A stretch of 64,000 nt of DNA. Source: an uncultured Haloferula sp. (GTDB lineage Bacteria; Verrucomicrobiota; Verrucomicrobiia; Verrucomicrobiales; Akkermansiaceae). Location: contig CBFGTS010000006.1 in the NCBI GenBank assembly GCA_965652295.1, positions 128,001 through 192,000 on the forward strand. Reading direction: 5' to 3'. The notes below the pieces were generated by a model. The model worked only from the letters and a program-made list of their open reading frames with translations. It was not told the origin of the DNA and did no database searches. Shown one piece after another: positions 14,051 to 35,419 of the stretch (its first letter is position 1; each line of letters begins with the position of its first letter). The translations under genes and the position numbers were made by a program.

Positions 14051-15133
14051 CTACCCCACCCCCACTCGCAGGTTCCGTGCTGTCCAAAGCTCCCCCGCCA
14101 GCGCTCTCAACGCTCCGCGCGGCTTTCTGGCACCGCTCATTCGCTTGTCGCTGAAATACTCCCGAGAGCCTGCGAACACCTCGTTCACAAACGACCGTCC
14201 ACCGATCACCGCTCCGTCCGTGAAGTATCTCACCCGGTGGCGGATCACCTGCGAAATCCGCAAGTCCCTCGATCCATCTGCGGTTTCCAGTCGCTTCATC
14301 TCCGACCGCGCCTTCTCCGGCTCCATCCCTTTCCTCGTCACCCGACCCTCGTCGTCGGACACGGCCACGGATTTCCCGAGCAAGACCCGTCGGTAGCGTT
14401 TCCCCAGCCCACCCTGCGCCCAAGCTCGCACCAGCGCCTCGAAGCCCATCGCTTCGCCATCTTTGCCGATCAAATACTGCATCACCCGCGCCAATCCCGC
14501 CCGGGCCTTTTTCCCTCCCGCCGCAGCCTCCGCGTAGCTGCTCCAGCGGTAGTCCACCGGGTCCTCGCAGATGCCCGCCCGCACCGGATTCAGATCGATG
14601 TACGCCGCCACCGTCTGCGCCGCGAACCCGCTCTCCACCAACACGCTTTTGAAACGCTGTTCCCACAGCCGACCGGTGCGCTGATGCGCCCGATTGAACC
14701 ACGAGGAAAACCGCTGCAGCAGGATTTTCATGAACTCACTGAGGTCGTTCATGCGGTAGGTGTAGGAGGAAAAGATCCGGTCCACCTCCGCTTCGTTTCC
14801 CGCCGCCCGGGCTTCCACCAGAAGGCGTTGCTGCTCCTTCACCTTCCAGGTCGGGTAGAACACCTCCATCCGCCTCAGCAGTTCGTCTTCCGGCATTCGC
14901 TCAGACGGCTGTGGCGGGACCTCGATGAGCAGGTGGAAATGGTTGGACATCAGGCAGTAAGAAAGCACCCGGCAACCCGTGAAATTCTCCGTCATCCGCG
15001 TCAGCGTGCGGAACTTCTCCTTCTCCTCCGGACCGAACGCGAACCGCCTCTCCACCACCCGTGAGATCACGTGGTAGATCGTCGGTTTTTTCGTCGAGTC
15101 CTTCCAAGGTGCCAGCCACCGCTTCCGAGCCAT
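14051..15133 (-). mobile_element. REP-associated tyrosine transposase (RAYT; HUH Y1, IS200/IS605 superfamily)
   Basis: YHVISR, YCLMSNHFHLL (HUH), GRLWEQRFKS, YIDLNPVRAG, YRWSSY; start ATG 15133. Confidence 0.88.
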
Positions 15134-18910: not shown

Positions 18911-19621
18911 ATGAGCCTGATCCGTGACTTGCCGAGCGATGAGCGCCCGCGTGAAAAGCTGGCCCGCCTGGGGCCCGCGGCGCTCGACAACGCCGAGCTG
19001 CTCGCCCTCTTCCTTGGCACCGGGATGAAGGGGAAAAGCTCCATCCAGATCGGGCGCGACATCCTGCGTCACTTCGGCTCGCTCCACGCCCTCGGAGCCG
19101 CCGGCCTCCCTGCCCTGCGCACCACCCCCGGCCTCGGGCTGGCCAAAGCCTGCCAGCTCGCCGCCGCCTTCGAGCTCGGTGCCCGCCTCGCCCGCGAGCG
19201 CATGAACCACACCCCACTCGACTGCCCCGAGCGCATCTACGAATCCTTCGCCCCCCAGCTCGCCCACCTGCCGCACGAGAAACTCCTCGTCGCCATGGTG
19301 AACTCTCGGCTCGAGCACATTGCCACCACCGAGATCACCAGCGGCACCCTCACCGAGACCTCCGCCCATCCGCGCGAAGTCCTGCGACCCATCGTGCTTC
19401 ACCACGCGTGGGGTTTCGTGCTCGTTCACAACCATCCCTCCGGCGATCCCCGCCCGAGTGAAGCCGATCTCGAATTCACCCACCGCCTCAAGGCCGCCGC
19501 CGACGTCCTCAGCATCCGCTTGCTCGACCATCTCATCATCGGCCGCCCCTCCGACTTCCGGGAGCCCTACTATTCCTTCCGGGAAAACGGCCGGTTCGAC
19601 GCCAAGGAACGCGAGGAATAA
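18911..19621 (+). CDS. radC: RadC-family JAB/MPN domain protein
   Basis: RPREKL, ELLALFLGTG, HPREV, JAMM motif HNHPSGDPRPSEAD, LLDHLII. Confidence 0.93.
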   Translation: MSLIRDLPSDERPREKLARLGPAALDNAELLALFLGTGMKGKSSIQIGRDILRHFGSLHALGAAGLPALRTTPGLGLAKACQLAAAFELGARLARERMNHTPLDCPERIYESFAPQLAHLPHEKLLVAMVNSRLEHIATTEITSGTLTETSAHPREVLRPIVLHHAWGFVLVHNHPSGDPRPSEADLEFTHRLKAAADVLSIRLLDHLIIGRPSDFREPYYSFRENGRFDAKEREE

Positions 19622-19654
19622 TTCTCATCCATCCGGGCCTCCACCCCATCCATG

Positions 19655-19687
19655 AAGCAGCCGAAGCGGCGAACGCTTCGGCTGCTT
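19655..19687. terminator. 14-bp perfect hairpin between convergent genes
   Basis: AAGCAGCCGAAGCG-GCGAA-CGCTTCGGCTGCTT. Confidence 0.7.
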
Positions 19688-19751
19688 TAGGGGCACTTCG
19701 TCCACCGGCAACCCCGTGCAATGGACGCGAAACCCCTCAACCCCGGATGGG

Positions 19752-21323
19752 CTACTCCTGCTCCACGCGGAAAAACACCTTCGTCGATTCGATGAACGAC
19801 GCCGTGGACGTCGTCATTCCATCGCCGCCGGGAATCCCCGATCCGATGATCTCCGACCAATCGATCAAGTCTTCGGAAGCGGTGATGCGGTAGGTTGAAC
19901 CGAGGCTGCTCTCCCAGCTCAGCGTGACCTCATCGGCTTCGAGGTCCACCGACACATCAAGAATCCGGAAATCCTCCGGCAGGGGAATCAGCGATTCGCC
20001 GGGAAACGGTATGTAATCGCTATAACTCTGCCGCACCATCGGTATCGCCAGGTCAAAGGCCGTGACGTTCTCGATCAAGGTCCAAGTGACTCCGTCCTGA
20101 CTCCCTTCCATGGTGAATTGCACCGGATCCCACTCCGGGAGATTCGCCGCCGTGCCGAAGGCGTAGTCGACGATGCCCGGCGTCTCCGTGCCGAAATCGA
20201 AAACCAGGGGGGCCTTGGCGTTGTCCACCCACTTGGTCGAGAGAACGCCATCGATGAGACTCGCGGGCCCTTCCTCCGGCACTGGATTGACTCCGCCGGG
20301 ATTCTCCACCGCCACGGGAACCACCAGATCGAACTCATCGTAGAACTCGAACTCGGCGAGCTGCACGAACTCCGCTCCCGGGTCCCGTGTCTTCAGCGTG
20401 TTGAAGCGGATGTAGCGGTAGTTCACCGGCCCGCCCACCACGGACCGCACCACCAGGGAATCGGTCGCGGATAGCCCGGCCTCGGTGTCGGTGGCCACGA
20501 TCTCGAACTCCGTATCGCCAGGGCTGAGGGTCACGCTCGCGGACCCGAAAGGCTCGTTCTCGGTAACGACGCCGGGTGTGATCGTCACCTGATCGGCGAA
20601 GGAGGTGTCCCACGAGAGGAGGATGTCTTCGCCCTGGCGGGAAATCTGGGCGTCCGACGTGAGAGCTTCGACCGCCGGTGGTCCCTTCGGTAGCGTCTCG
20701 ATCACCACGCTTCCAATCCCGACATCGCCGCCGTTGCCGTTGCCGAGCCGGATCCGATCGAAGCTCAACCCGGAGGTGTAAACCGCCGTCGCGAGAACCG
20801 GCCCCGCGATGTCCGTCCCGGCATAGAGCCTCGTCCGTCCGGTCACGAAGTCATAGGTCAGGGTGACGACGCCGCCCACGGTCTGCGGATCGGCAACGGC
20901 CCGCTCCAGACTGGGCGCACCTTCCATACCGATCGAGGTATAGTCGCCGGCGAGGTCGCCGACGAAAACAAGCTCCTGCGCGCCGTTGAAAAGAGACACC
21001 CCTGCGTAGCCTCCATTCTGGCTCAGCAGCGAAAAATCGACCGTCATCTTCAGCAGACGTTCGGTGCCATCGAACGGGTTGGCGAAGTGACCGAACGCGA
21101 GCCGGGCGGCTCCGGTGGTATCAATGGAGCCTCCCTGTACCGTCAGCACCGTCCCGTCCGTCTGGCTCCATGGATTGCCGATATCGGGCAGTTTACCGGG
21201 AAGTTCGGTGCCGTCCGGGTCGTCGAAGTCGTCGGAAAACAGCGTATCCCCGAAGACCGGGGAAGATGCCATCAACAGGGAGACGGGGAGGACGTACCAT
21301 CGGAAGGGAAAAGCTGTCGCCAT
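19752..21323 (-). CDS. Secreted multidomain protein: N-terminal beta-rich domain, discoidin/CBM32-like domain, C-terminal FFRV domain
   Basis: Signal peptide; YRYIRF..VQLAEFEF..LIDG..TKW..FTMEGSQDGVTWT is discoidin-like; N-domain paralogous to 21561..22256. Confidence 0.75.
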   Translation of the reverse strand: MATAFPFRWYVLPVSLLMASSPVFGDTLFSDDFDDPDGTELPGKLPDIGNPWSQTDGTVLTVQGGSIDTTGAARLAFGHFANPFDGTERLLKMTVDFSLLSQNGGYAGVSLFNGAQELVFVGDLAGDYTSIGMEGAPSLERAVADPQTVGGVVTLTYDFVTGRTRLYAGTDIAGPVLATAVYTSGLSFDRIRLGNGNGGDVGIGSVVIETLPKGPPAVEALTSDAQISRQGEDILLSWDTSFADQVTITPGVVTENEPFGSASVTLSPGDTEFEIVATDTEAGLSATDSLVVRSVVGGPVNYRYIRFNTLKTRDPGAEFVQLAEFEFYDEFDLVVPVAVENPGGVNPVPEEGPASLIDGVLSTKWVDNAKAPLVFDFGTETPGIVDYAFGTAANLPEWDPVQFTMEGSQDGVTWTLIENVTAFDLAIPMVRQSYSDYIPFPGESLIPLPEDFRILDVSVDLEADEVTLSWESSLGSTYRITASEDLIDWSEIIGSGIPGGDGMTTSTASFIESTKVFFRVEQE

Positions 21324-21377
21324 GGGGATAGGGAGTTGGGTTTACGGAACGGCTCGAAATCGCCGCATCTAGAAAGG

Positions 21378-21406
21378 CATGCGGATTCGGAGGCGAAGGA
21401 CCGCCA
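21378..21406 (-). promoter_or_regulatory. Putative ECF-type promoter TGGCGG-N16-CCGCATG
   Basis: Minus strand TGGCGG TCCTTCGCCTCCGAAT CCGCATG, upstream of ATG 21323. Confidence 0.65.
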
Positions 21407-21467
21407 CGAAATCCGCGGTTTTTCCGGCAGCGGTCGGAGGGAGCGAAAAAAGAATCTTCCGACTTTC

Positions 21468-21496
21468 TGGCGGAAATGGCGGGGGATTTCCGCATG
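21468..21496 (+). promoter_or_regulatory. Putative ECF-type promoter TGGCGG-N16-CCGCATG
   Basis: TGGCGG AAATGGCGGGGGATTT CCGCATG, upstream of ATG 21561. Confidence 0.65.
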
Positions 21497-21560
21497 ACCT
21501 CATGATGGGACCTCTCGGTTCGAGGCCCCGGATTGAAAAAACTCAGCGACATCCCCATCC

Positions 21561-22256
21561 ATGAAACATCCCCTGAAAAACCCCTCCCTGCTGGTCACGG
21601 CGGTCACGATCCTCGGTACTTCCGTCGGTCACGCCGCTCTCGTCTTCGCCGATGACTTCAGCGAAGCCGATGGCACGGCGATCATTGGCAAAGCCCCGGA
21701 CATCGGCTCGAACTGGTCCGGAACCGCGCCGACCATCAGTGCCGGCAGCTTCGACACCAGCGGCGCAGGCCGCGAAGCCTACGGAAACTTCACCCTGGCT
21801 CTCGGGTCCGGACAGGTGCTCACCATGAGCTATGATGCCCTCCTCCCCTCCGCGGGTGCCTTCTTCACCGGTGGCTATGGAGGCGTGAGCCTCTATTCCG
21901 ACGCCGGCGAGCGGATCTTCACGGGCGATCTGGGTATCGACACGAACTGGGGGGTCGACCAGGCCGCCGTCCTCGGTGCCCAGGCCAGTTCCGACTCCAC
22001 GATTCCGACCACCGCGACCCTCCAATACTTCTTCGATACGGGGGAGTGGTCGTTCACCACGACCTCGGGGGTGAACCTCTCCGGCACCGGTCTGAGCGGT
22101 GAAGCCCTCAACCGGCTCCGCATCGCTAATGGAGCCGGTGGTGACATCCGCGTCGACAACCTGACGGTGGACATCAGCGCGGTGCCCGAGCCCTCCTCCG
22201 CGCTTCTCTCCGGTCTCGCGGTCCTTGGCTTCGGCCTCTGGCGCCGCAGAGCCTGA
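21561..22256 (+). CDS. PEP-CTERM sorting domain protein
   Basis: Signal peptide ending GHA; C-terminal [24 protein letters not shown]. Confidence 0.93.
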
Positions 22257-22273
22257 AGCTCCGGCTTCGTTCT

Positions 22274-22308
22274 CGGCCGGCCGGATGATCTCCGGCCGGC
22301 TGTTTTTT
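22274..22308 (+). terminator. Intrinsic terminator after the PEP-CTERM gene
   Basis: CGGCCGGCCGGA-TGATC-TCCGGCCGGCTG followed by T6. Confidence 0.8.
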
Positions 22309-22332
22309 CTCCTGATTTCATCCCGCCCTTCC

Positions 22333-25300
22333 ATGACCCGCACCTCGTGTCCCGCCGCCGCTCTTCTTGCCACGGCGGCTTCCCTCGCCCTCTCCTCCGC
22401 CGCTGAGATCGGCCACGAAACCTTCGACTACCCCGATGGCGCGATCGCCGGCAGGTCGGGCGGGACCTTCTGGGACTGGAACCAGCTCACCGCCATTCAC
22501 AGCGGCAGCGCCTCGGATTGGGCTCACGTCTTCGGCACTCCACAGATCGTCTCCGGCGTGCTGCGCACCCACGAATCCGGTGCCCTGCGGGAATACAACG
22601 GCCCGAGCACCGGTCTCGGTGGCGACGAAGGTGCCGGTGCCCTGCGCGGCTCCGGCGTGGTCTACTACCGCGTCGACTACACCCAACGCGGCGAGAATGC
22701 ATGGTCGGGCATGAGCTCATTCGAGTTCGGCACCGAGCGGGTCTTCTTCGGTCAACCGGGCGGCCAGAGCAACCCGCGGCGATTCGGCATCGATCAGGGC
22801 GGCCAGACCGCACTGGGTTCACGTTCCGTGGCTCCGAACCAAACCTTCGACCTCGTCGCGGAGCTCAACCACAGCTCCAACACCCTGCGTCTCTGGGTCG
22901 ACCCCGAGGACGGTAACTCCGCGCCGGAAGCCTCGAAGATCCGCACCGGCTCGGCGTGGTCGTCTTCCATCCGTCTCGCCTCAGGCGGGCCGACGGAGTG
23001 GGACAACCTGCAGGTGGCCACTTCATGGAAAGACCTCGGTCTTCCTCCGAAGTCCGGAGTGCTGCTGGCGGAGACCTTCGCCGGCTACAACGTGGGCAGC
23101 CTCCCCGGCCAGGCCGTCACGAGCACCGGCTTCGGCGTGGGTGCGAGCTGGCAGGGCGACGGACCGGCTGAGTCCACCTTTGCCTCCAGGTCGGTTTTCT
23201 ACCCCGGGCTGCTGCCGGCCGGGGGCAAGCTGGTCACCTCCGGCGATGGTGGTGCCGGCACGACCGCCCTCCTTGACACCGGGAGCTTCGACCGCGCGGG
23301 ACTGCTGGATGCCGATGGAAAGGTCGGAGGAGGCGACATCGAAGGCTCGCTGTATTTCGCCTTCGTCGGCCGCTCGATGACCGACGTCGGCAGCGGCGCT
23401 TTCGGCGGGCTCCACTTTTACCTCGATGGCAACGAACGCACCTTGATCGGAAACAGCTGGCCGGAGTCGAACTTCGGAGCCTCGGCCGAACACACCGCCA
23501 CGGTGATGCCGCTTTCCAGCGCGAACCCGGACCAGAACGGCGGCCTCGAATCCATTGATACCGACAGCCATTTCTTCATCGGTCGCATCGATTTCCGCGC
23601 CGGCGAGGCGGATGACCTCACCATCTGGCTGGACCCGGATCTCTCCGCACCGGAGCTGGACCAGAGCGCCTCGCTCACCACCCGGACGCCGGGCTTCGCC
23701 GACCTGGCCTTCGATGCAATCCACTTCCGCAGTGGAAACGGGAACCCGTGGGAGTTCGACGACCTCCGCATGGGAACTACTTGGGATTCCGTACTTCCGA
23801 CGCCCTACGAAGGCGACCTCATCCGCGTCCAGACCCTGGGCGAGCGGCTGGTGCGGGTCGAAATCCGCGGACCCCAGGGCTTTGAAGATCGCGAGACCTT
23901 CACCGTCGTCGGCCGCGATTGGGACGAGGTCCCCGCCACGACCACGCACGGGGACGGGGAAACGGTCATCAGCACCGCGAGCTACCGCGTCCGCATTCCG
24001 GCCGATGCGACCTCGCTGGAAGGCATCCGGATCGAGTCGCCCTCCGGTGAGCTGCTCCACGAACTTGCCGCCACTCTTCCTGCAAACGCCTATCTTCCCA
24101 GCCCCGAGGATGCCGGTCCGGTCTGGCTCATGGCGGACCACCCGCGGCTGGTGCCCCCACCTTGGGGTGCCACGCCACCGCCGGACAGCAGCGACCCGCA
24201 GTCCGGTTGGGATTCGGGAAACGACGCCCACGATGTGTACGTCTTCCTCCTCCCGGACGGGGCCGACGAAGCGTTCCGCGAGGACTTCCTGCACCTCACC
24301 GGGCCGGTTCCGCTGCCTCCGCTCTCGACCTTCGGTCTCTGGGACAGCCGGTATTTCCCCTACACCGAGGAGACCGCGCTGGAGGTCATCGACACCTACC
24401 GCGCCAAGTCGATCCCGCTCGACATGTTCGTGCTCGATACCGACTGGCGGATCGGCGCATCCGACGGCTACGGCGTGGCCACGAACTATTTCCCGGACAT
24501 GGCCCGCTTCCTTGAGGCAGCGCACGCACGGAATGTCGGCGTGATGTTCAACGACCACCCCGAACCGATCGCTCCCACGGCGCTCGACCCCGCGGAGCTG
24601 CAATACCGTTGGGAAGGGCTGACCTCGATCCTCGACCTTGGCGGCGACGTCTGGTGGTACGACCGGAACTGGCATACCAGCCTGCCCGAACCGATGCCGG
24701 GGATCCGCAAGGAAGTCTGGGGCATGCGGCTTTTCCAGGACATCACGCAGCGCTACGCACCGGACCGCCGGCCGCTGATCATGGCCAACGTGGACGGCAT
24801 CGACAACGGAGCGTGGAACGACCCCTCGCATCCCGCCGCGCACCGTTTCCCGATCTGGTGGACGGGGGACATCTACAGCGACTGGGATGACATCCGGAAC
24901 GAAGTCGCCCTCTCCACCAACAGCGGCATCGCCCGCATGATGCCCTATGTGCACCCCGACTGCGGCGGCCACAACACCAATCCGACCTCGGAAGGCTACG
25001 CGCGCTGGGTGCAGTTCGGCGCGCTCTGTCCGGTGTTCCGGCTTCATGGTGGTGCCAAGGAAATCCGCTATCCCTGGGCCTACGGAGCGGAAGCCGAAGC
25101 GATCGCCCGCGATTACACCCAGCTCCGCTACCGCCTGCTGCCCACCATCTACTCCGCCGCCGCCCGCGCCCACGAGGATGGCATGCCGATCCTGCGCCGC
25201 TGCGACCTTGAATGGCCGGAGCAACCCGAGGCCGCGGGCGACGGTCAGTATCTGTTCGGCGATGACCTGCTGGTCGCACCGCTCACCCAGCCGGGCACCT

Positions 25301-26745
25301 CGTTCGCGGAGCAGGAAAGCGGCCTCCTCCGCACGGCGGAATCCGGCGGGCAGCCGGGGCTCAACGCAGAATACTTTGCCAACCCTTCGCTCACCGGTGC
25401 GCCGGTGCTCTCGCGTGTCGATGCCGCGGTGAACTTCGATTGGGGTACTGGCTCCCCGGGCCATGGCGTGCCCGCCAACAGCTTCTCGGCCCGCTGGACC
25501 GGATGGATCGGTCCATTCGAGGAAACGGGCACCTTCGAGATCGCCCTCCAGGCGGACGACGGCGTACGTCTGTGGATCGATGACGAATTGTTGATCGATG
25601 CCTGGGTGCCGCAGGACGGCATCTATCACTCGGCCTCCTTCCAGGTCACCGCCGGGGAATCCCTGCCGATCCGCATCAGCTACTATGAAGGTAGTGGAGG
25701 CGCGAAGATCCGCTTCGGTGAAGCCGTCCCGCAGTCGTTCAGCCTGTGGCTGCCACCCGGCGAGTGGGAGGACGCGTGGACCGGCGAGCGCCTCAACGGC
25801 CCCGCCACGATCAGCCGCCATTACCCGTTGGCCCGCTGTCCAATCTTCTACCGCGTGGGCGGGGCCGTGCTGACGGTGCCAACGATGCAATACTCCGGCG
25901 AGCGCCCGTGGGGCGAGGTCGTGGTCGATGCCATTTCCCCTTCCACGGACGGCGAATCCACGCGCGTGCTCTACGAAGACGACGGCGAGTCCACGGGCTA
26001 CCTCGAGGGCCTTTCCCGCCGGACGGTGGTGAAAACCCGCCGCCTCGGCGAGCAGCACCGCGTTTCCATCCTACCCGCGTCCGGAGACTACCCCGGAGCC
26101 ATCAGCGAACGTTCCTGGGGCGTTCGTTTCCACCTGCCCGCCGGAACCACGAAAGGCACCGTACTTCGCAATGGCGTACCACTCCCCTGGGACGGCGGCG
26201 AAGCCGTGTGGATCGAAGGAGGCGGTGATTCCGACGACTCCATGCCTCTTGGCGGCGCAGGCACCGGCACCCGTTCGCTGCAAGGTCCGGTGGTCGAGGT
26301 CACCCTGCCTTCCGAGTCCGTGGCCACCGCCCAGGAGGTCATTTTCGGACCGCTCGACTCGGATGGCGATGGCATCCCGGACGAAACCGAAGGCGATGGC
26401 GATCCTGATGGCGACGGCATTCCGAATTACCTCGACGACGATTCGGATGGCGATGGCCAAAGCGATGCCGTGGAAGCCAGCGCCGGCACCGACCGGCTGA
26501 ACCCGGCGGAGTGGTTCCGGATTGAAAGCTTCGACCATTCCGGTGCCGAAACGCTTCGCCTGACCCTTTCCGGCAAACCCGGCCAAACCTATCAGCTCGA
26601 AGGTTCCCCCTCGATGGAGGAAGGCAGCTGGACGGATGTCGGCGAGCCCATCGGCCCGCTGGCGGCCGCAGCCACCGTGGAGATGGAGGTGCCGCTGACG
26701 GAGGAAAGCAGGAGTTTTTTTCGCATCGCCACCGCCGGTCCATGA
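22333..26745 (+). CDS. Secreted multimodular GH31 glycoside hydrolase with PA14 domain, DxDGDG repeats and C-terminal FFRI domain
   Basis: [57 protein letters not shown]14-like [24 protein letters not shown]. Confidence 0.85.
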
Positions 26746-26749
26746 GGAC

Positions 26750-28969
<2,220 letters not shown>

Positions 28970-28978
28970 GGGTATTCC

Positions 28979-29539
28979 TCAGGGCGCGGCGGTCGATCGA
29001 TCGGCGGTGATCATCTGGTAAAGCTTCGCCCGCGCGAACATCCACTGCCGTTCCACCGAGCGCATGCTGCGACCGACCAGGTCCGCGATTTCCCGGTTGC
29101 CTAGGCCGGCGTAGAACTTCAACAGGACCACCTGCGCCGACGCCGGATCCGTGCGTTCCAGCTGGAGCAAACACTCGTGGATCAGCAACACATGGTCGTT
29201 GTCGCCGGGGAAACCCTGTTCCAGCGCTTCGTCCGGTTCGGTCGCCCGGCGTTTGGCCGCGGATTTCTCACGCGCGCGGTCCACCAGGATCCGCCGCATC
29301 GCCTGGGCGGCGGCTCCGAAGAAATGCGCCCGGTTTTCCCACGTCACCAGTCGGCCTCCGGAAAGCCGCAGCCACGCCTCGTGGACCAACGCCGTGGGCT
29401 GGAGGGTGAACTGCCGGCTTTCATGCCGCAACCGGTCCGAGGCGATCCGCCGCAGTTCCTCATACACGACCGGGAGAATCTGCTCGGTGGTCAGAGCTTC
29501 AGGCCCCTGCTCGGTCGGCGGTTCCTCCTCGAAAAACAT
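28979..29539 (-). CDS. ECF sigma factor, kinase-associated (TIGR02999-like)
   Basis: VYEELRRIA, TLQPTALVHEAWLRL, RAHFFGAAAQAMRRILVDRAR, W.FARAKL; SD-like GGAGGG before ATG 29539. Confidence 0.92.
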   Translation of the reverse strand: MFFEEEPPTEQGPEALTTEQILPVVYEELRRIASDRLRHESRQFTLQPTALVHEAWLRLSGGRLVTWENRAHFFGAAAQAMRRILVDRAREKSAAKRRATEPDEALEQGFPGDNDHVLLIHECLLQLERTDPASAQVVLLKFYAGLGNREIADLVGRSMRSVERQWMFARAKLYQMITADRSTAAP

Positions 29540-29658
29540 ACCCTCCCTTCTAAGAATCCGGAGGTGGCGCGACAAGGCAAATGAACGCTGCAAGACCGCC
29601 CTTCAGCCTCTCGTATGCAGCCTTTTTCCGGGAATCGAAAGATCGCAGGCCTCCGCTC

Positions 29659-30330
29659 TCACAGCCATCCCGCCACCTCGAAAGCCCGCCGCGCCCGCTC
29701 CCGGGCATGCTCGCGCAGCGGCTCGCCGTGACCCACCACGACCTGCTCGAACTCCCATTCCATCACCCGCCGCACCGATTTCCGGAGCGCCTCCTCATCC
29801 TGCACGGCGAACCTCATCCGCCGCGAGGTGCCCGGAGCGTGTTCTTTTCCCAGACCCACGCGCAGCAGGCACTGCTTCCAGAGGCCCGTGGCCGCAGGGA
29901 AATTCATCAGCAGGTCGCACACGATCAAGGTCCGGCTGGGCAGGTGAAAAAAGACGTGCTCGCCGAACCCCGGTGCGCCTTCGATCGGTAGCACCTCGAT
30001 CTCGTCCCGCCATTCCTCCGGCGGCGGCATCAGCGGCAGCACCGGGCGACCGATCCCGGGAAAACCCTCCGGGGCGAGGTAGCTCGCCTCGGGAAAGGCG
30101 GCGGCCCCCGCAGCCGCGAAGGTATCGTGATCGATCATCGGATCAGTGATCCACGCCGGTTCGCCCAACGCCCGGATCTGCGCCACGTCATCCGCGGGAA
30201 AATCCGCCGTCGAATGAATGAGCAGCTTGCCCGAGGTCAGCCGGATCACCGTAACGTTGCGATGAATGTCCACCCCGAGGAGGGGAAATTTGAAGGGAAG
30301 ATACCAGATGCCGGAACCGATCGCTTTCAT
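29659..30330 (-). CDS. DUF4336-like (metallo-beta-lactamase-related) protein
   Basis: NVTVIRLTSGKLLIHS, EHVFFHLPSRTLIVCDL, WEFEQVVVGHG; start moved to ATG 30330. Confidence 0.75.
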   Translation of the reverse strand: MKAIGSGIWYLPFKFPLLGVDIHRNVTVIRLTSGKLLIHSTADFPADDVAQIRALGEPAWITDPMIDHDTFAAAGAAAFPEASYLAPEGFPGIGRPVLPLMPPPEEWRDEIEVLPIEGAPGFGEHVFFHLPSRTLIVCDLLMNFPAATGLWKQCLLRVGLGKEHAPGTSRRMRFAVQDEEALRKSVRRVMEWEFEQVVVGHGEPLREHARERARRAFEVAGWL

Positions 30331-30531
30331 GGGAGACGTCACGCCTCCACCAAAACGCCCCGTCTTTCCAACGAAATCAGCGCGGCCTCGGGGAAGTCCG
30401 ACTCTGCCGCGGGAGATCGCTACCCGGCTGCCGGGTTTTCGTGTCACCGGCCGAGGTTTCTCATTCACCCCGAATGGGGAGGTTGCCAAGGTGGTCAAGA
30501 AGCCGGGAGAGTCCCGCGCGCAAATGTCCTT

Positions 30532-31560
30532 ATGAAAGTTTCTTCCTCGTTCTTCACCGTCGGCCTCCTGACCGGTCTGCTGGCCGCGTGCCTGGCATTT
30601 GCCTGGATCGGCCGCCGCGGCGAAACCGGCACCGCCTCGGGGGGCCGCGTCCTCACCGTCGCCCACGCCCTGCCCGTGACCCACCCGGTCCACAAAGGCA
30701 TCGAGAATTTCGGCGATGAGCTGAAGAAACTCTCCAACGGCGCCCTCACCATCGAGATCTTCCCCAGCGAACAGCTTGGCAACGAGACCGAGTGTCTGGA
30801 GAAAGTCCAACAGGGCACCATCGACATCACCAAGACCAGCGCCGCGCCGATCGGCAACTTCGTCCCCGTCTTCAAACTCTTCAGCCTGCCTTATCTGTTC
30901 CGCGACCGCGACCACTTGTGGCGCGCGCTCGACGGCCAGGTCGGCCAGGATTTGCTCACCGCCCTCTCCACCAACGACCAAGGCTCGCCGAGCGGCCTCA
31001 TCGGCCTCGGCTACTACGACGCCGGCAGTCGCAGCTTTTACACCACCCGCCCGGTCACCTCGCCCGCCGACCTCCAGGGTCTCAAGATCCGCGTGATGCA
31101 GGATCCGGTGGCCGAGGACACCGTCAAGGCCATGGGGGCCTCCGCCGTCGCCATGGCATTCGGGGAACTCTACACTTCGCTGAAACAGGGCGGCGTGGAC
31201 GGCGCGGAAAACAACCCGCCCAGCTTCCTTTCCAGCCGCCACTTCGAGGTGTGCAAGCACTACATCCTCGACGCGCATTCCAGCATTCCAGACGTCCTCG
31301 TCGCCAGCGCCAAGCTCTGGGATGGTCTCAACGAAACCGAGCGCGGGTGGGTGCTGGAAGCCATGAAACGCTCGAGCCAGTTCCAGCGCGAACTCTGGGC
31401 GGTCGAGACCGAGCGCGCCCTCAAGGAGCTGGCGGAAGGCGGTGTGACCATTGTCGAGCCCGACCCCGAGCCGTTCCGTCAGGCGGCCGAACCTGTCACC
31501 GAAAAATACGCCACCGGAGCCCGGGCGGAAATGGTCAACCGGATCAAGGAGGTCAAATGA
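30532..31560 (+). CDS. dctP: TRAP transporter substrate-binding protein
   Basis: IFPSEQLG, FSLPYLF, DLQGLKIRV, ELYTSLKQGGVDGAENN. Confidence 0.92.
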   Translation: MKVSSSFFTVGLLTGLLAACLAFAWIGRRGETGTASGGRVLTVAHALPVTHPVHKGIENFGDELKKLSNGALTIEIFPSEQLGNETECLEKVQQGTIDITKTSAAPIGNFVPVFKLFSLPYLFRDRDHLWRALDGQVGQDLLTALSTNDQGSPSGLIGLGYYDAGSRSFYTTRPVTSPADLQGLKIRVMQDPVAEDTVKAMGASAVAMAFGELYTSLKQGGVDGAENNPPSFLSSRHFEVCKHYILDAHSSIPDVLVASAKLWDGLNETERGWVLEAMKRSSQFQRELWAVETERALKELAEGGVTIVEPDPEPFRQAAEPVTEKYATGARAEMVNRIKEVK

Positions 31561-32060
31561 GCCGTCACGGAACCTTCCACCACATCCTCGTGCGAACCCT
31601 CGGCGGCCTCTGTGCCCTGATGTTCGCCGCTCTGGTGCTCGACGTCCTGTGGGGCGTCTTCACCCGCCAGATCCTCAACGCCCAGCCCGCCTGGACCGAG
31701 GAACTCGCGCGCTTCCTGCTCGTCTGGCTTTCCATCCTCGGCGGCGTGCTGGCCTATGCCGATGACCGACACCTCGGCGTCGATGTCCTCGTCGCCCGCC
31801 TCGACCCCGGAGCCCGGAAGATCGCCCTGCTGGTCTCCCACCTCTGCGTGCTCGGGTTTTCGCTGGCGGTGCTGGTGATCGGCGGCAGTGAGCTCTTCCA
31901 CAGCCGCTGGGAGGCCGGCCAGATGATGTCCGCCCTGCACATCCGCAAGGCCTGGTTCTACCTCGTGCTGCCCCTCGGAGGCTCGCTGATCACCCTGCTC
32001 GCGATCGGCAAGCTTCTCGAAACGCTGCGCATCTTCCGTGGAAAGGAGGAAGTACGATGA
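31557..32060 (+). CDS. dctQ: TRAP transporter small permease
   Basis: VFTR..WTEELARFLLVW..HLGVD; ATGA overlaps at both ends. Confidence 0.88.
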   Translation: MSRHGTFHHILVRTLGGLCALMFAALVLDVLWGVFTRQILNAQPAWTEELARFLLVWLSILGGVLAYADDRHLGVDVLVARLDPGARKIALLVSHLCVLGFSLAVLVIGGSELFHSRWEAGQMMSALHIRKAWFYLVLPLGGSLITLLAIGKLLETLRIFRGKEEVR

Positions 32061-33364
32061 GTGTCGGACTTGCCGTTCTTCTCGTGGCCTTCGTCGTCCT
32101 CCTGCTGCTGGAGGTTCCCGTGGCCTTCGTCATCGGCCTCGCCACCCTGCTCGGTGCGCTGGCGCTGGGGCGCGATGGCAGCCTGGTCTCGCTGGCCAGT
32201 GACATGGCCAACGGTCTCGACAGTTTCCCGCTGCTCGCCATCCCGTTCTTCGTGCTCGCCGGCGAGCTGATGGCCGCCGGCGGTCTCGCCCGGCGTCTCA
32301 TCGACTTCGCCGCCTCCATCGTCGGCCGCATGCCCGGCGGGCTCGCCCTGATCAACACGCTCACCTGCATGCTCTTCGGTGCGGTCTCCGGCTCGGCCAC
32401 CGCCGCCATTTCCTCGATCGGCGGCTCGCTGATCCCGGAGATGGAACGAAAAGGCTACCCGCGGGATTTCAGCGTGGCCCTCACCGCCACCGCCGCCACC
32501 ACCGGCCTGCTCATCCCGCCGAGCAACGTGATGATCGTCTACGCGCTGGTGGCCTCCAACGTCTCCGTCGGCGCGCTGTTCCTCGCAGGCGTCTTCCCCG
32601 GCGTTGTCACCGGCATCGCCCTGATGATCGTTTCCCTGATCGTCAGCCGCGGCTTCCGCAGCGCCTCCGGTGCCGCCGCCCAGCTCGATGAGATTCCGCG
32701 CTTCTGGCGCTCCCTCCTCCGCGCCTTCCCCAGCCTGCTGATGCTCGTGCTGGTGCTGGGCGTCATCTTGACAGGCTTCATGACGCCCACCGAGTCCTCG
32801 GCCATCGCCGTCCTCTGGGCGCTGCTGCTCGTCGCCGTGTTCTACCGGGAAATCAAGTTCTCCGAACTGCCGAAGATCCTCGTCAACTCGGCGCGTACGA
32901 CGGGAATCGTACTCCTGCTCGTCGGCACCAGCGCGGCGATGAGCCGGCTGCTGACCATCGAGCAGGTCCCCCAGCTCGCCGCCGATGCCCTGCTTTCGGT
33001 CTCCGATAATCCGCTGGTCATCCTGCTGCTGATCAACCTCGCCCTGCTGCTGGTCGGCATCTTCATGGACATGACCCCGGCAATCCTGGTTTTCACGCCG
33101 ATCTTCCTCCCGGTCGCGATCGCGATCGACATCAACCCGGTCCACTTCGGCGTGATCATGGTGGCGAACCTGTGCATCGGCCTCTGCACCCCGCCGGTGG
33201 GCACCTGCCTGTTCCTCGGCTGCGGCGTCGGCAAAGCGAAGATCGCCGGCGTCTCGCGGGCGATGATCCCTTTCTACATCGCGATGTTCGCCGCCCTCCT
33301 GCTGATCACCTACTGGGAGTCCCTCTCCCTCTGGCTGCCCCGGTGGCTTGGAGAAATGGAATGA
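32057..33364 (+). CDS. dctM: TRAP transporter large permease
   Basis: FPLLAIPFFVLAGELM, GAVSGSA, IPPS, TPTE, HFGVI, TPPVG. Confidence 0.93.
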   Translation: MSVGLAVLLVAFVVLLLLEVPVAFVIGLATLLGALALGRDGSLVSLASDMANGLDSFPLLAIPFFVLAGELMAAGGLARRLIDFAASIVGRMPGGLALINTLTCMLFGAVSGSATAAISSIGGSLIPEMERKGYPRDFSVALTATAATTGLLIPPSNVMIVYALVASNVSVGALFLAGVFPGVVTGIALMIVSLIVSRGFRSASGAAAQLDEIPRFWRSLLRAFPSLLMLVLVLGVILTGFMTPTESSAIAVLWALLLVAVFYREIKFSELPKILVNSARTTGIVLLLVGTSAAMSRLLTIEQVPQLAADALLSVSDNPLVILLLINLALLLVGIFMDMTPAILVFTPIFLPVAIAIDINPVHFGVIMVANLCIGLCTPPVGTCLFLGCGVGKAKIAGVSRAMIPFYIAMFAALLLITYWESLSLWLPRWLGEME

Positions 33365-33414
33365 TGATGAAGGTTTGACACCCTCCTTCATCCTTCGCTT
33401 TTTCTCCCGTCATC

Positions 33415-34047
33415 ATGTTAGATCGACTGAAACACGCCACCCTCCTTCTCCTCACCACTCTTTCCGTCTCGTGCGTGAGCCTGGTGACGCCCGAACAAGC
33501 CGCCATCGAGGTGAGCGGCGTCAAGCCGGCCAGCGTCGGAGTCACCGTCGCGGACCAGCGGACCCAGGTGTCCGGCGGGTTTCGAAAATCAAGATACTAC
33601 GGCCGCACACGGATGAGCTACGGCATCCCGCAGCCAATCCTCGATCCGAAAATGTCGGTGGCCGATCGGCTCGCTGCGCAACTTGAGGCCGGCTTCCGGA
33701 AAAACGGCGTGGCGGTGCACAAGGTCGCCACGGAGTTCCGGGGTGATCCCGCCTCCGCCATTCGTAGCGCGGGCACCTCTTCGCGTTTCCTAGTGGTGAA
33801 GCTTGAGAACGTGTGGATCGACTTCGCCAACCCGTTGTTCGGCAAGCAATCCATCCTCTACTTCCATGCCACCGCCCAGGTGATGGATGCGGGAGGCAAG
33901 GTCCAGGCTTCGACATCGAAACGCTTCGAGAAGCGCTTCCGCTATGACGTCAACGACTCGTTCTTCAATCAAGCGGTATGGACCTTGCAGCCGGAGTTCG
34001 CCGCCTTGGTGAACCGCCCCGAGATCCGGCGCGCTCTCGCCCGCTGA
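33415..34047 (+). CDS. Hypothetical lipoprotein (possibly YajG-like)
   Basis: Lipobox-like LSVSC; VTVADQR motif. Confidence 0.6.
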   Translation: MLDRLKHATLLLLTTLSVSCVSLVTPEQAAIEVSGVKPASVGVTVADQRTQVSGGFRKSRYYGRTRMSYGIPQPILDPKMSVADRLAAQLEAGFRKNGVAVHKVATEFRGDPASAIRSAGTSSRFLVVKLENVWIDFANPLFGKQSILYFHATAQVMDAGGKVQASTSKRFEKRFRYDVNDSFFNQAVWTLQPEFAALVNRPEIRRALAR

Positions 34048-34127
34048 CCCTCCGCATCTCCTGCCAAGCGCTTGGCGTGACAGACGGCGGGAATGACAGC
34101 CGTCTCGATCCGGGCCAACCTCCCGCC

Positions 34128-35411
34128 ATGGAAACCAGCTGGATGCACCCCAGGGAGGAACTCGTCCGCACGATGGCGCGCATCTACCGCTATCGGATGA
34201 CCACCACCTCGGGCGGGAACCTTTCGGTTCTCGATCCCGATGGCAGCATCTGGATCACGCCCTCGCGCCTCGACAAGGGAAAGCTCCGCCCCTCGGACAT
34301 CGTCCGGGTCACGCCGGACGGTCGCCATGACACGCCCTATCCGCCTTCCTCAGAGTTTCCATTTCACCGCGCGATCTACCGCCGGCGGCCGGACATCAAG
34401 GCGATCGTCCACGCCCATCCGGGTGCCTTGGTGGCCTTCAGCATCTGCCGGCAGATTCCCGATCTCCGGGTCCAGAGCCACGCCTACGACGTCTGCCGTA
34501 GAATCGCCTACGCCGAATACGCCTGCCCTGGCAGCGAGCAGCTCGGCGAGAACATCGCCGATGCCTTCGCCGGTGGGGCGGACTGCGTGATGCTGGAAAA
34601 CCATGGCGTCGTCGTCGGTGGAGCGAGCCTCAAGGACGCCTTCCAACGTTTCGAAACGCTGGAGTTCGTGGCCCGAACCCTGATCAATGCCAGACGTCTC
34701 GGCGAGATCACCACCGTGCCGACCGAGGTCCTGAGGCATCCGCCGCGCGCGGAGTTCGCCACCCTCCCCTCCACCACGATCACCAACCGCGAGAAGGAAC
34801 TCCGCGGAGACCTGTGCGCTTTCGTCCAACGCTCATACGAGCAGCGGCTTCTGATCAGCACCGCCGGGGCGTTCTCGGCGCGGTTGGAAGGCGATGAGTT
34901 CCTCGTCACGCCCCACCGCAGCGACCGCCTCGAACTCGGGCCGGAAAAAATCGTCCGGGCCCGCGGGCATGCCTGCGAGGAAGGCGGCCATCCCTCCCGC
35001 GCCACGCCCTTGATCGCGCGGATCTACGAACGGCACCCGGACATCGGAGCCGTCATCCTCGCCCAACCCGCCGCGGCCAGCGCCTATGCCATGTGCGGCG
35101 CTCCCATTTCCACGCGGACCATTCCGGAGAGTTATGTGGTGCTCCGTGATACCCCGAAGCTTCCTTTCACCTGCATCGTGAACGAAGCGGACGAACTGGC
35201 GGAGGCAATCGATCTGGTTCACTGCCCCACCCTCTTGATTCAAAACGAGGGCGTGCTGGTGGCAGGCAAAGACCTGCTCGACGCCTTCGACCGGCTGGAA
35301 GTGCTGGAAGCCACCGCCGAAGCCCTGCAGCTCGCCCAGCCGCTCGGCCCGCTGGTGCCGATGCCCGAGGCGGCCTTGCAAGAACTCCGCGAGGCCTTCG
35401 GGCTCGCTTGA
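34128..35411 (+). CDS. Class II aldolase/adducin family protein with two tandem domains
   Basis: Domain 1 TTSGGNLS, ITPS, PSSE, VHAHP, LENHG; domain 2 STAGAFS, VTP, PSRA, AFDRLEVLE. Confidence 0.85.
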   Translation: METSWMHPREELVRTMARIYRYRMTTTSGGNLSVLDPDGSIWITPSRLDKGKLRPSDIVRVTPDGRHDTPYPPSSEFPFHRAIYRRRPDIKAIVHAHPGALVAFSICRQIPDLRVQSHAYDVCRRIAYAEYACPGSEQLGENIADAFAGGADCVMLENHGVVVGGASLKDAFQRFETLEFVARTLINARRLGEITTVPTEVLRHPPRAEFATLPSTTITNREKELRGDLCAFVQRSYEQRLLISTAGAFSARLEGDEFLVTPHRSDRLELGPEKIVRARGHACEEGGHPSRATPLIARIYERHPDIGAVILAQPAAASAYAMCGAPISTRTIPESYVVLRDTPKLPFTCIVNEADELAEAIDLVHCPTLLIQNEGVLVAGKDLLDAFDRLEVLEATAEALQLAQPLGPLVPMPEAALQELREAFGLA

Positions 35412-35419
35412 GCCGGTGG

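Follow-up and report, generated by a model that had tools for sequence, protein, structure and literature searches.

A 64,000-nucleotide stretch from an uncultured Haloferula sp. (Verrucomicrobiota, Akkermansiaceae; assembly GCA_965652295.1, contig CBFGTS010000006.1, positions 128,001 to 192,000), hereafter the window, carries between positions 19,752 and 29,539 a compact module of five genes (Table 1). Two divergently transcribed genes encode exported proteins, a glycoside hydrolase family 31 (GH31) gene follows the rightward one, and convergent with it lies an operon for an extracytoplasmic function (ECF) sigma factor and a membrane Ser/Thr kinase. The 237-bp gap between the divergent start codons (21323 on the minus strand, 21561 on the plus strand) holds one copy of TGGCGG-N16-CCGCATG on each strand. 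The explanation that we favour overall, and consider likely, is that these twin elements are promoters read by the adjacent sigma factor, which is of the ECF43 type and is switched on by its partner kinase. A preliminary description of the locus, made from the sequence alone, had named the secreted proteins, the sigma factor and the kinase, all borne out by Pfam and TIGR02999 matches, as well as the GH31 gene that follows (PF01055); it overlooked the paralogy of the divergent genes, a hairpin between the PEP-CTERM and GH31 genes, and ten further sigma-kinase pairs elsewhere in the genome.

Table 1. Position of the module's genes and predicted elements in the window
Feature	Position	Strand	Details
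Secreted protein, 523 aa	19752..21323	-	PEP-CTERM-paralogous N-terminal domain, F5/8 type C (PF00754), recurring C-terminal domain
Predicted ECF promoter of the 523-aa gene	21378-21406	-	TGGCGG (-35), N16, CCGCATG (-10)
Predicted ECF promoter of the PEP-CTERM gene	21468-21496	+	TGGCGG (-35), N16, CCGCATG (-10)
PEP-CTERM protein, 231 aa	21561..22256	+	PF07589
Terminator-like hairpin, 12 pairs then a T run	22274-22310	+	Between the PEP-CTERM and GH31 genes
Secreted GH31 glycosidase with PA14 insert, 1470 aa	22333..26745	+	PF01055, PF07691
Hanks-type Ser/Thr kinase	26750..28969	-	PF00069; one predicted membrane helix, 421-439
ECF sigma factor (ECF43 type), TIGR02999 / PF07638, 186 aa	28979..29539	-	Thr49 in QPTA, Asp87, Ser158, Glu163

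The two copies of the motif agree at 13 of 13 box bases and have unrelated spacers; their coordinates and strands were found just as the preliminary description gave them, and their distances to the start codons, put there at 55–65 nt, measure 64 nt for the plus-strand copy and 54 nt for the minus-strand copy. The exact pattern of six plus seven bases with a 16-nt spacer occurs just twice in the 4.37-Mb genome, both times in this gap. Taken alone, the twin arrangement is weak evidence, modestly beyond chance: dinucleotide shuffling of the gap produced an opposite-strand twin 8 times in 3000, and 4 of the genome's 305 divergent gaps, this one included, pass the same test. When TGGCGG-Nn-CGCAT was scanned across the genome with n from 8 to 27, there were 8 matches at n = 16 and 1–16 at the other lengths, with no peak, and the exact boxes gave scattered matches in six genomes of the genus, none tied to a gene start. 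The exact boxes were for these reasons rejected as a genome-wide motif and are treated as a locus variant. A third relaxed match in the window (37617-37644) lies inside an opposite-strand gene and was treated as chance. A sigma-70 promoter scan returned 1 match against 0.9 expected, and an Rfam search of 19500-30600 returned none. It is the comparative data that carry the case for promoters.

Beside sigma factors of the TIGR02999 (ECF43-type) family the motif takes the general form TG[TG]C[GC]G-N16-xCG, of which the window twin is one variant. Related sites were first noticed by eye at other loci, before any testing on other genomes. In a discovery set of 475 upstream regions from 60 sigma loci of relatives, an unseeded count of gapped word pairs ranked GTCGG-N17-CGT first (21 occurrences against 1.65 expected), with the geometry of the window boxes. 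A matrix seeded with TGTCGG-N17-CG and trained on 59 loci, the orthologous locus being left out, was used to score 2256 upstream regions. At 14 bits or more it found sites in 17 of the 101 regions within 10 kb of this genome's 12 sigma genes and in 14 of the 2155 elsewhere (odds ratio 31); 5 of the 101 near regions also score on the opposite strand, in part because divergent genes share a region. PEP-CTERM genes are preceded by a site in 9 of 13 cases near a sigma gene and in 1 of 57 far from one, that one lying 10.7 kb from a sigma gene. A second held-out set comprised 120 loci and 1004 regions, with at least one locus (L178) repeating a training locus; here the 16-bit mark was attained by 61 regions and, once the bases were shuffled, by 0, and the held-out sites at this threshold have a 16-nt spacer in 50 of 53 cases and a median distance of 65 nt to the start codon. 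The genome-wide signal sought in the preliminary description is absent as far as spacer enrichment is concerned, and the enrichment near TIGR02999 sigma loci is present in the form of the family motif.

The orthologous locus in a related genome (L011 in G021), whose sigma factor is 78% identical, has the gene order of the window (radC, PEP-CTERM, GH31, kinase, sigma) without the left, 523-aa gene, and keeps the exact TGGCGG-N16-CCGCATG, with a different spacer, in front of the PEP-CTERM gene. Both boxes are also kept at a locus of a named Haloferula (L112). Homologues of the 523-aa gene stand behind TGGCGG-N16-CCGCATT at L017 and behind near-identical boxes at L021. The nearest relatives of the window sigma, which share the helix sequence S-x-R-S/T-V-E-R, mostly have TGGCGG sites, so that the window boxes are what the sequence of its sigma factor predicts. 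More generally, the variable -10 bases of the sites are more alike within a locus than between loci (0.64 versus 0.37; spacer control, 0.46 versus 0.35), and the 11 pairs of the genome use at least four -35 variants with differing -10 tails. The earlier proposal that the motif is the promoter of this type of sigma factor is supported by the enrichment in held-out data, by the boxes kept in the orthologue and by the covariation with the recognition helix that is described below. On these comparative grounds it is highly probable that the motif is a promoter read by this sigma family, and scarcely less so that the window copies are read by the adjacent sigma factor itself.

In a register set against Mycobacterium tuberculosis SigL, Ser158 and Glu163 of the window sigma fall in or beside the recognition helix; Glu163 takes the position of Arg171, and Asp87 that of Asn84, of RpoE. 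Mutagenesis by Todor et al. shows that an Arg at the Arg171 position recognizes C at -31 and that, at the Asn84 position, Asp recognizes -13C/-12G (10.1101/2020.06.23.168245). Among the relatives the Glu163 column is the best one for the fifth -35 base (0.80 bits, the next 0.37; 76 of 195 sigma factors with a site). A prediction of the code, written before the test set was fetched, was tested with a matrix neutral at -35 bases 3, 5 and 6, which found a site for 70 of 122 held-out sigma factors: G stood at the fifth base in 37 of the 40 cases where the Glu163 position is E or D, and C in 15 of the 20 where it is R or K (p 4e-9 without correction for kinship). Of 195 sigma rows, 131 have D and 56 have E at the Asp87 position, and the -10 CG is present in 52 of 53 held-out sites, the CG being itself part of the matrix. 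A relation between Ser158 and -35 base 3 is suggestive only (0.49 bits, with the next column at 0.45; T goes with T in 15 of 17 held-out cases), and for the -10 tail no sigma column stood clearly above the rest.

Several observations weigh against reading too much into this code. There are 3 exceptions in 40 (E/D) and 5 in 20 (R/K). Met at the helix position goes with A (2 of 2 held-out cases), as does Tyr in two cases (L045, and one found by eye), whereas the Met/Tyr mutants described by Todor et al. gave T and G. On a quick kinship tree of 59 rows, built from sigma and kinase with the recognition helix left out, there are six changes and three independent, well-supported pairs, all concordant (p 0.25); a sigma-only tree leaves one independent pair. 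The helix code loses significance once kinship is controlled.

The window sigma matches TIGR02999 at 166 bits (cut-off 126) and PF07638 with an E-value of 4e-42. Its QPTA motif, placed in region 2.2 by the preliminary description, occupies residues 47-50 and aligns on the AED of SigL; QPTA or QATA occurs in 176 of 195 sigma factors of relatives, and Thr49 is invariant in 50 of 50 aligned relatives. The kinase gene starts 9 nt past the sigma stop codon, and the protein has intact catalytic motifs and a single hydropathy peak, at its predicted membrane helix. The domain beyond it, of about 300 residues, is modelled as all-helical (pLDDT 96.5). Foldseek gave weak matches to tetratricopeptide repeat (TPR) proteins, the best at an E-value of 2.7e-3 and nothing at 0.001 or better; Pfam TPR matches are below their cut-offs, and an Atlas value of 0.85 is taken as a lead only. 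The domain is predicted, from its model, to be a TPR-like periplasmic sensor. The neighbours of the sigma gene are the kinase gene and a DUF4336 gene, and no anti-sigma family was matched by Pfam among the 11 neighbouring proteins scanned, in line with the absence noted earlier. ECF43 systems are described as combining a PF07638 sigma factor, an adjacent kinase with one membrane helix and outer TPRs, a Thr motif (consensus QTTA) in place of DAED, and no anti-sigma factor (PMC7826278). Of these, all but the TPRs, to which the outer domain shows a weak likeness, are found here, and judged by its sequence the window sigma is filed as ECF43-type.

Phosphorylation at the region 2.2 Thr activates EcfP of Vibrio parahaemolyticus (PMC8999054), and EcfK of Xanthomonas citri is phosphorylated at the equivalent Thr, for which a linker Thr can substitute (PMC13147305). 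The proposed activation of the window sigma in the manner of EcfP/PknT agrees with the ECF43 features present. By analogy, the sigma factor would be inactive until the co-encoded kinase phosphorylates Thr49, and the phosphate would supply the negative charge missing from region 2.2 and allow binding to core polymerase; we regard this as likely. Autoregulation of the window sigma was rejected, the region upstream of its gene scoring 2.3 bits. As the sigma-kinase operon lacks the motif, it is probably made independently and gated by phosphorylation alone. The genome encodes 11 full-length sigma factors of the TIGR02999 type and one fragment, together with 11 kinases that share the C-terminal domain of the window kinase. 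At loci with kinases of this subfamily, cargo genes lie behind 76 of 85 sites and the kinase gene behind 5 of 85, whereas the kinase gene lies behind 20 of the 50 sites found alongside other kinase types; the window subfamily therefore looks output-directed rather than self-amplifying. The fragment, at C5:140414-140587, encodes about 57 residues and ends just past region 2.2, the remainder being absent from the next 500 bp; it lies between large secreted genes and near lyase-domain genes. At five loci (L016, L013, L023, L126 and L139), sigma-kinase pairs stand side by side in twos or threes, or are joined by a further kinase.

The two divergent exported proteins are paralogues, with 36% identity over 207 residues, and at the DNA level only chance matches of 9–15 nt are left. 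The PEP-CTERM protein has a hydrophobic stretch at its N-terminus and matches PF07589 above cut-off at residues 207-230, so that the features of an exosortase substrate (signal peptide; VPEP, hydrophobic helix and basic tail) are recognizable from this match and hydropathy. Its named homologues are mostly from Haloferula, Luteolibacter and Akkermansiaceae. The model of its single domain (pLDDT 95.9) matched calreticulin, Emp47 and GH16/PL7 folds in Foldseek, and superposes on a domain of 5mqs with a Z-score of 15.4 (VIA; root-mean-square deviation 2.9, 162 residues aligned). The domain is accordingly predicted to be a concanavalin-A-like (laminin G / L-lectin) beta-sandwich and is a candidate sugar binder. 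PEP-CTERM genes with an adjoining larger paralogue number 6 of 15 within 11 kb of a sigma gene against 4 of 58 elsewhere, and among the gene calls listed, PEP-CTERM and large secreted genes lie beside most sigma-kinase pairs. The larger partners in these cassettes share a C-terminal domain some 70 residues long (S.DL..W ... F[FY]R[LV]-like), encoded in the window at 19752-19960 in the 523-aa gene and at 26540-26745 in the GH31 gene, and without a Pfam or NCBIfam name on these two proteins. A hidden Markov model built from 13 of the larger partners finds it in 102 proteins of the genome, mostly secreted, with 23 of 140 proteins near a sigma gene against 79 of 2752 elsewhere; it may be a verrucomicrobial sorting signal. 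A distant twin PEP-CTERM cassette (C1:419381-424952, at C1:421974) adjoins a classical-looking ECF sigma gene, a FecR-like anti-sigma gene recognized by eye and amino-sugar genes, an indication that either kind of regulator can serve one and the same cassette; a pair similar to it is found at C5:163045-165200.

The GH31 protein matches PF01055 at 152 bits, and also PF21365, with barrel and C-terminal domains present; its nearest solved relatives are alpha-xylosidases and alpha-glucosidases (best E-value 2e-40). Its WTGD aligns with the SGD motif of 7wj9, and the nucleophile stretch, which we take to be WWYD, is poorly aligned. The N-terminal domain is 28–43% identical to proteins encoded behind TGGCGG sites at loci L012-L016 of the nearest sigma clade, and this homology ties the enzyme to the module. 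No separate promoter was found for the gene, its upstream region scoring 1.2 bits. The hairpin that precedes it has a counterpart of different sequence, also with a T run, at the same place between the PEP-CTERM and GH31 genes of L011. Strong hairpins (-25 kcal/mol or below) follow 22 of 32 PEP-CTERM genes and 288 of 1072 other genes, an arrangement that would keep the PEP-CTERM protein well in excess of the protein encoded downstream. GH31 would be transcribed by partial read-through, and its membership in the regulon is rather probable.

If these elements work together as proposed, the active sigma factor would transcribe the PEP-CTERM protein and its larger secreted paralogue, with some read-through into GH31, and the periplasmic helical domain of the kinase would sense a glycan or a breakdown product of one, which would make the unit an inducible glycan-capture cassette; we consider the chances of this last step evenly balanced. 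The 11 pairs with their variant boxes would form a partly insulated set of local switches for cell-surface proteins, and bacteria of this kind probably use sigma-kinase pairs as such a bank. A more far-reaching version, which we advance tentatively and consider somewhat less likely than not to hold in full, would make this bank the verrucomicrobial counterpart of the switchboard of polysaccharide utilization loci (PULs): each kinase would sense one glycan and act on its own sigma factor, whose promoter variant would be written in one or two residues of its recognition helix, and one lectin-fold domain would be exported by two routes, as a short PEP-CTERM form, produced in surplus upstream of the attenuating hairpin, and as a long form with the C-terminal sorting domain.

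The direct targets were compared with more distant genes. As targets we took 51 of the 55 site-bearing genes of at least 300 aa other than PEP-CTERM genes (one proved to encode a kinase, and 8 had no family), and as controls 49 genes at least 6 kb (6–10 kb) from the sigma gene at the same loci, 51 having been drawn from 132 and 2 dropped as targets. Lectin or carbohydrate-binding-module types without a hydrolase domain are enriched (9 of 51 targets, 1 of 49 controls; p 0.016), TonB-dependent receptors number 6 of 51 against 1 of 49, autotransporter passenger repeats 12 of 51 against 2 of 49, and one target is a sugar carrier of the major facilitator superfamily. Hydrolase or lyase domains show no enrichment (7 of 51, 11 of 49). 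The direct regulon thus consists of surface and binding proteins, enzymes being common nearby and not preferentially first in line. At the genome's other loci, where 46 of 75 chosen neighbouring proteins were scanned, GH115, GH2, GH29 with a fucose isomerase, GH27, GH31 and lyase domains occur at several, and no carbohydrate-active enzyme (CAZyme) was found among the proteins scanned at C4 (three proteins) and C3:215109.

That the signal is a glycan is about as probable as that it is not, and the most serious competing reading is a non-glycan input, with the module acting as a general surface-remodelling switch (adhesion, biofilm, predator, envelope stress) whose cargo happens to lie in CAZyme-rich regions. 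We think it a possibility of real weight, somewhat below even. It draws on the two studied ECF43 systems, which answer the non-nutrient cues of amoeba contact and polymyxin (PMC8999054), on the preponderance of autotransporter repeats over hydrolases among the targets, on the C4 locus, where a halogenase-family gene is found and no CAZyme, and on a predicted TPR-like solenoid sensor without a sugar-binding match. It sits less well with the lectin-type proteins, the TonB-dependent receptors and the sugar carrier among the targets, with the CAZyme genes at the other loci, and with the retention of the PEP-CTERM/GH31/kinase/sigma block in L011. The same evidence divides the earlier claim of a self-contained sense-and-degrade unit: the enzyme and its dedicated regulator are indeed kept together, but the enzyme gene is siteless behind a hairpin and hydrolases are not enriched.

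Some observations around the cargo stand apart. Flavin-dependent halogenase-family genes (PF04820) occur in two TGGCGG-type loci, at L191 5075-6580 (C4 of this genome) and L013 6129-7637, the latter directly behind a site. At L125, L142, L144, L148 and L149 (three Opitutaceae, one Opitutia and one metagenome-assembled genome (MAG) of Verrucomicrobia), the motif precedes a TonB-dependent receptor gene, which makes the layout of these distant loci more PUL-like. Next to the module, window positions 30532-37960 hold a sugar-use cluster with no strong motif (9.3 bits): tripartite ATP-independent periplasmic transporter genes (DctP confirmed), a tandem class II aldolase, and a convergent gene for an 846-aa secreted protein that by eye looks like GH2. 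An IS200-like (Y1_Tnp) transposase gene, possibly of the REP-associated type, lies at 14051-15133 on the minus strand.

Returning to the adjacent ECF43-type sigma as reader of the twin promoters, a number of points count against it or narrow it. For 52 of 122 held-out sigma factors there is no site above threshold, the L011 site itself falls below the 11.5-bit threshold, and, with the matrix trained on other genomes, the plus-strand copy of the window ranks 5 of 2256 (22.3 bits) and the minus-strand copy 50 (11.9 bits). GH31 has no site of its own and lies behind the hairpin, and hydrolases are not enriched. The printed ECF43 prediction, drawn from a small proteobacterial set, is GTC at -35 and CAG at -10 (PMC7826278), from which the motif departs: GTC is part of the family consensus TGTCGG and is missing from the TGGCGG of the window, and at -10 the element is xCG[C/T]. 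EcfK with T51A still works (PMC13147305), so that Thr49 may not be the only switch. Finally, two paralogous sigma factors, those of C4 and C8:43863, also have TGGCGG sites, so that cross-reading is possible and insulation may be incomplete.

This last fact, three sigma factors of one genome with TGGCGG sites, is also a ground for supposing that a sigma paralogue or a transcription factor, rather than the adjacent sigma, reads the motif, and the adjacent sigma gene is indeed 7 kb away, convergent and without a site of its own. We consider this unlikely: across loci the -35 variant tracks the helix residue of the nearest sigma factor, and the CCGCATG tail is kept together with the orthologous sigma, while the C4 and C8 sites carry other tails. 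Less likely still is that the copies are relics of the duplication that produced the paralogues, one or both being promoters no longer. The paralogy itself, the absence of the left gene from L011 and the lower score of the minus-strand site would fit, but proteins that have diverged to 36% identity with no residual DNA similarity, next to fully identical boxes and unrelated spacers, argue for selection on the boxes, and the left-gene homologues in L017 and L021 have near-identical boxes. A chance match in a GC-rich intergenic region, which the three other divergent gaps passing the twin test and the missing spacer peak might suggest, is very improbable and largely excluded by conservation in the orthologue and by both held-out enrichment tests.

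Reading by the adjacent, kinase-switched sigma factor would matter beyond this locus. Verrucomicrobia are major degraders of complex glycans, and the control of their surface and carbohydrate-related proteins is poorly described; the module gives a well-defined regulatory unit that recurs in the genome, and a domain that may direct sorting. Very few systems of phosphorylation-activated sigma factors have been studied, and the motif together with the residue code would make their regulons predictable from sequence. Paralogous triplets of kinase, sigma factor and promoter could also be useful as partly orthogonal switches. We found in the literature no mapped promoter for phosphorylation-activated sigma factors and neither promoter nor module of this kind in Verrucomicrobia, although Iyer et al. 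2020 and the supplements of Todor et al. may list ECF43 promoters.

Among known systems, the PULs of Bacteroidota place a trans-envelope sensor and a dedicated regulator beside surface binding proteins and CAZymes, in many paralogous units, and in these respects, including repetition, the window module resembles them. The PUL analogy of the preliminary description holds for the co-location of a CAZyme with a dedicated regulator; it does not extend to susC/susD, as neither a TonB receptor nor a SusD family was found among the module's five proteins or their neighbours, and the PEP-CTERM protein is the binding candidate instead. In some relatives (Opitutaceae, MAGs labelled bacterium or Verrucomicrobia, and one locus from the genus itself), a TonB-dependent receptor is encoded downstream of the motif, as in a PUL. 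PUL regulators are anti-sigma factors or hybrid two-component systems, whereas the regulator here is a sigma factor that, by analogy, would be controlled by phosphorylation. ECF41 and ECF42 promoters (TGTCACA/CGTC and TGTCGAT/CGTC; PMC7826278) share a TGTC-type -35 and a CG-containing -10 element with the present motif, but those sigma factors are controlled by C-terminal extensions, which the 186-aa window sigma lacks. As described, EcfP/PknT and EcfK/PknS agree with the window pair in the PF07638 sigma factor, the kinase directly downstream with one membrane helix and an outer domain, TPR-like there and weakly so in the window kinase, the Thr replacing the acidic region 2.2 motif, and the lack of an anti-sigma factor; they differ in being one pair per system, directed to type VI secretion or polymyxin resistance, while this genome has 11 paralogous pairs whose regulons are local and made up of exported proteins with a predicted lectin fold. 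The promoter found here is fuller than the one printed for ECF43 and different at -10. The code of Todor et al. is matched in that the Arg171-equivalent residue tracks the -31 base and an Asp at the Asn84 position goes with the -10 CG; their promoters are autoregulatory, with ECF43 absent from the main text, whereas those of the window subfamily mostly precede cargo genes. The kinase-switch type and the general ECF specificity code are already known; what sets this case apart is an expansion to 11 pairs whose promoter variants are locus-specific, a kinase subfamily directed at cargo, and the pairing of PEP-CTERM and C-terminal-domain proteins in a twin cassette.

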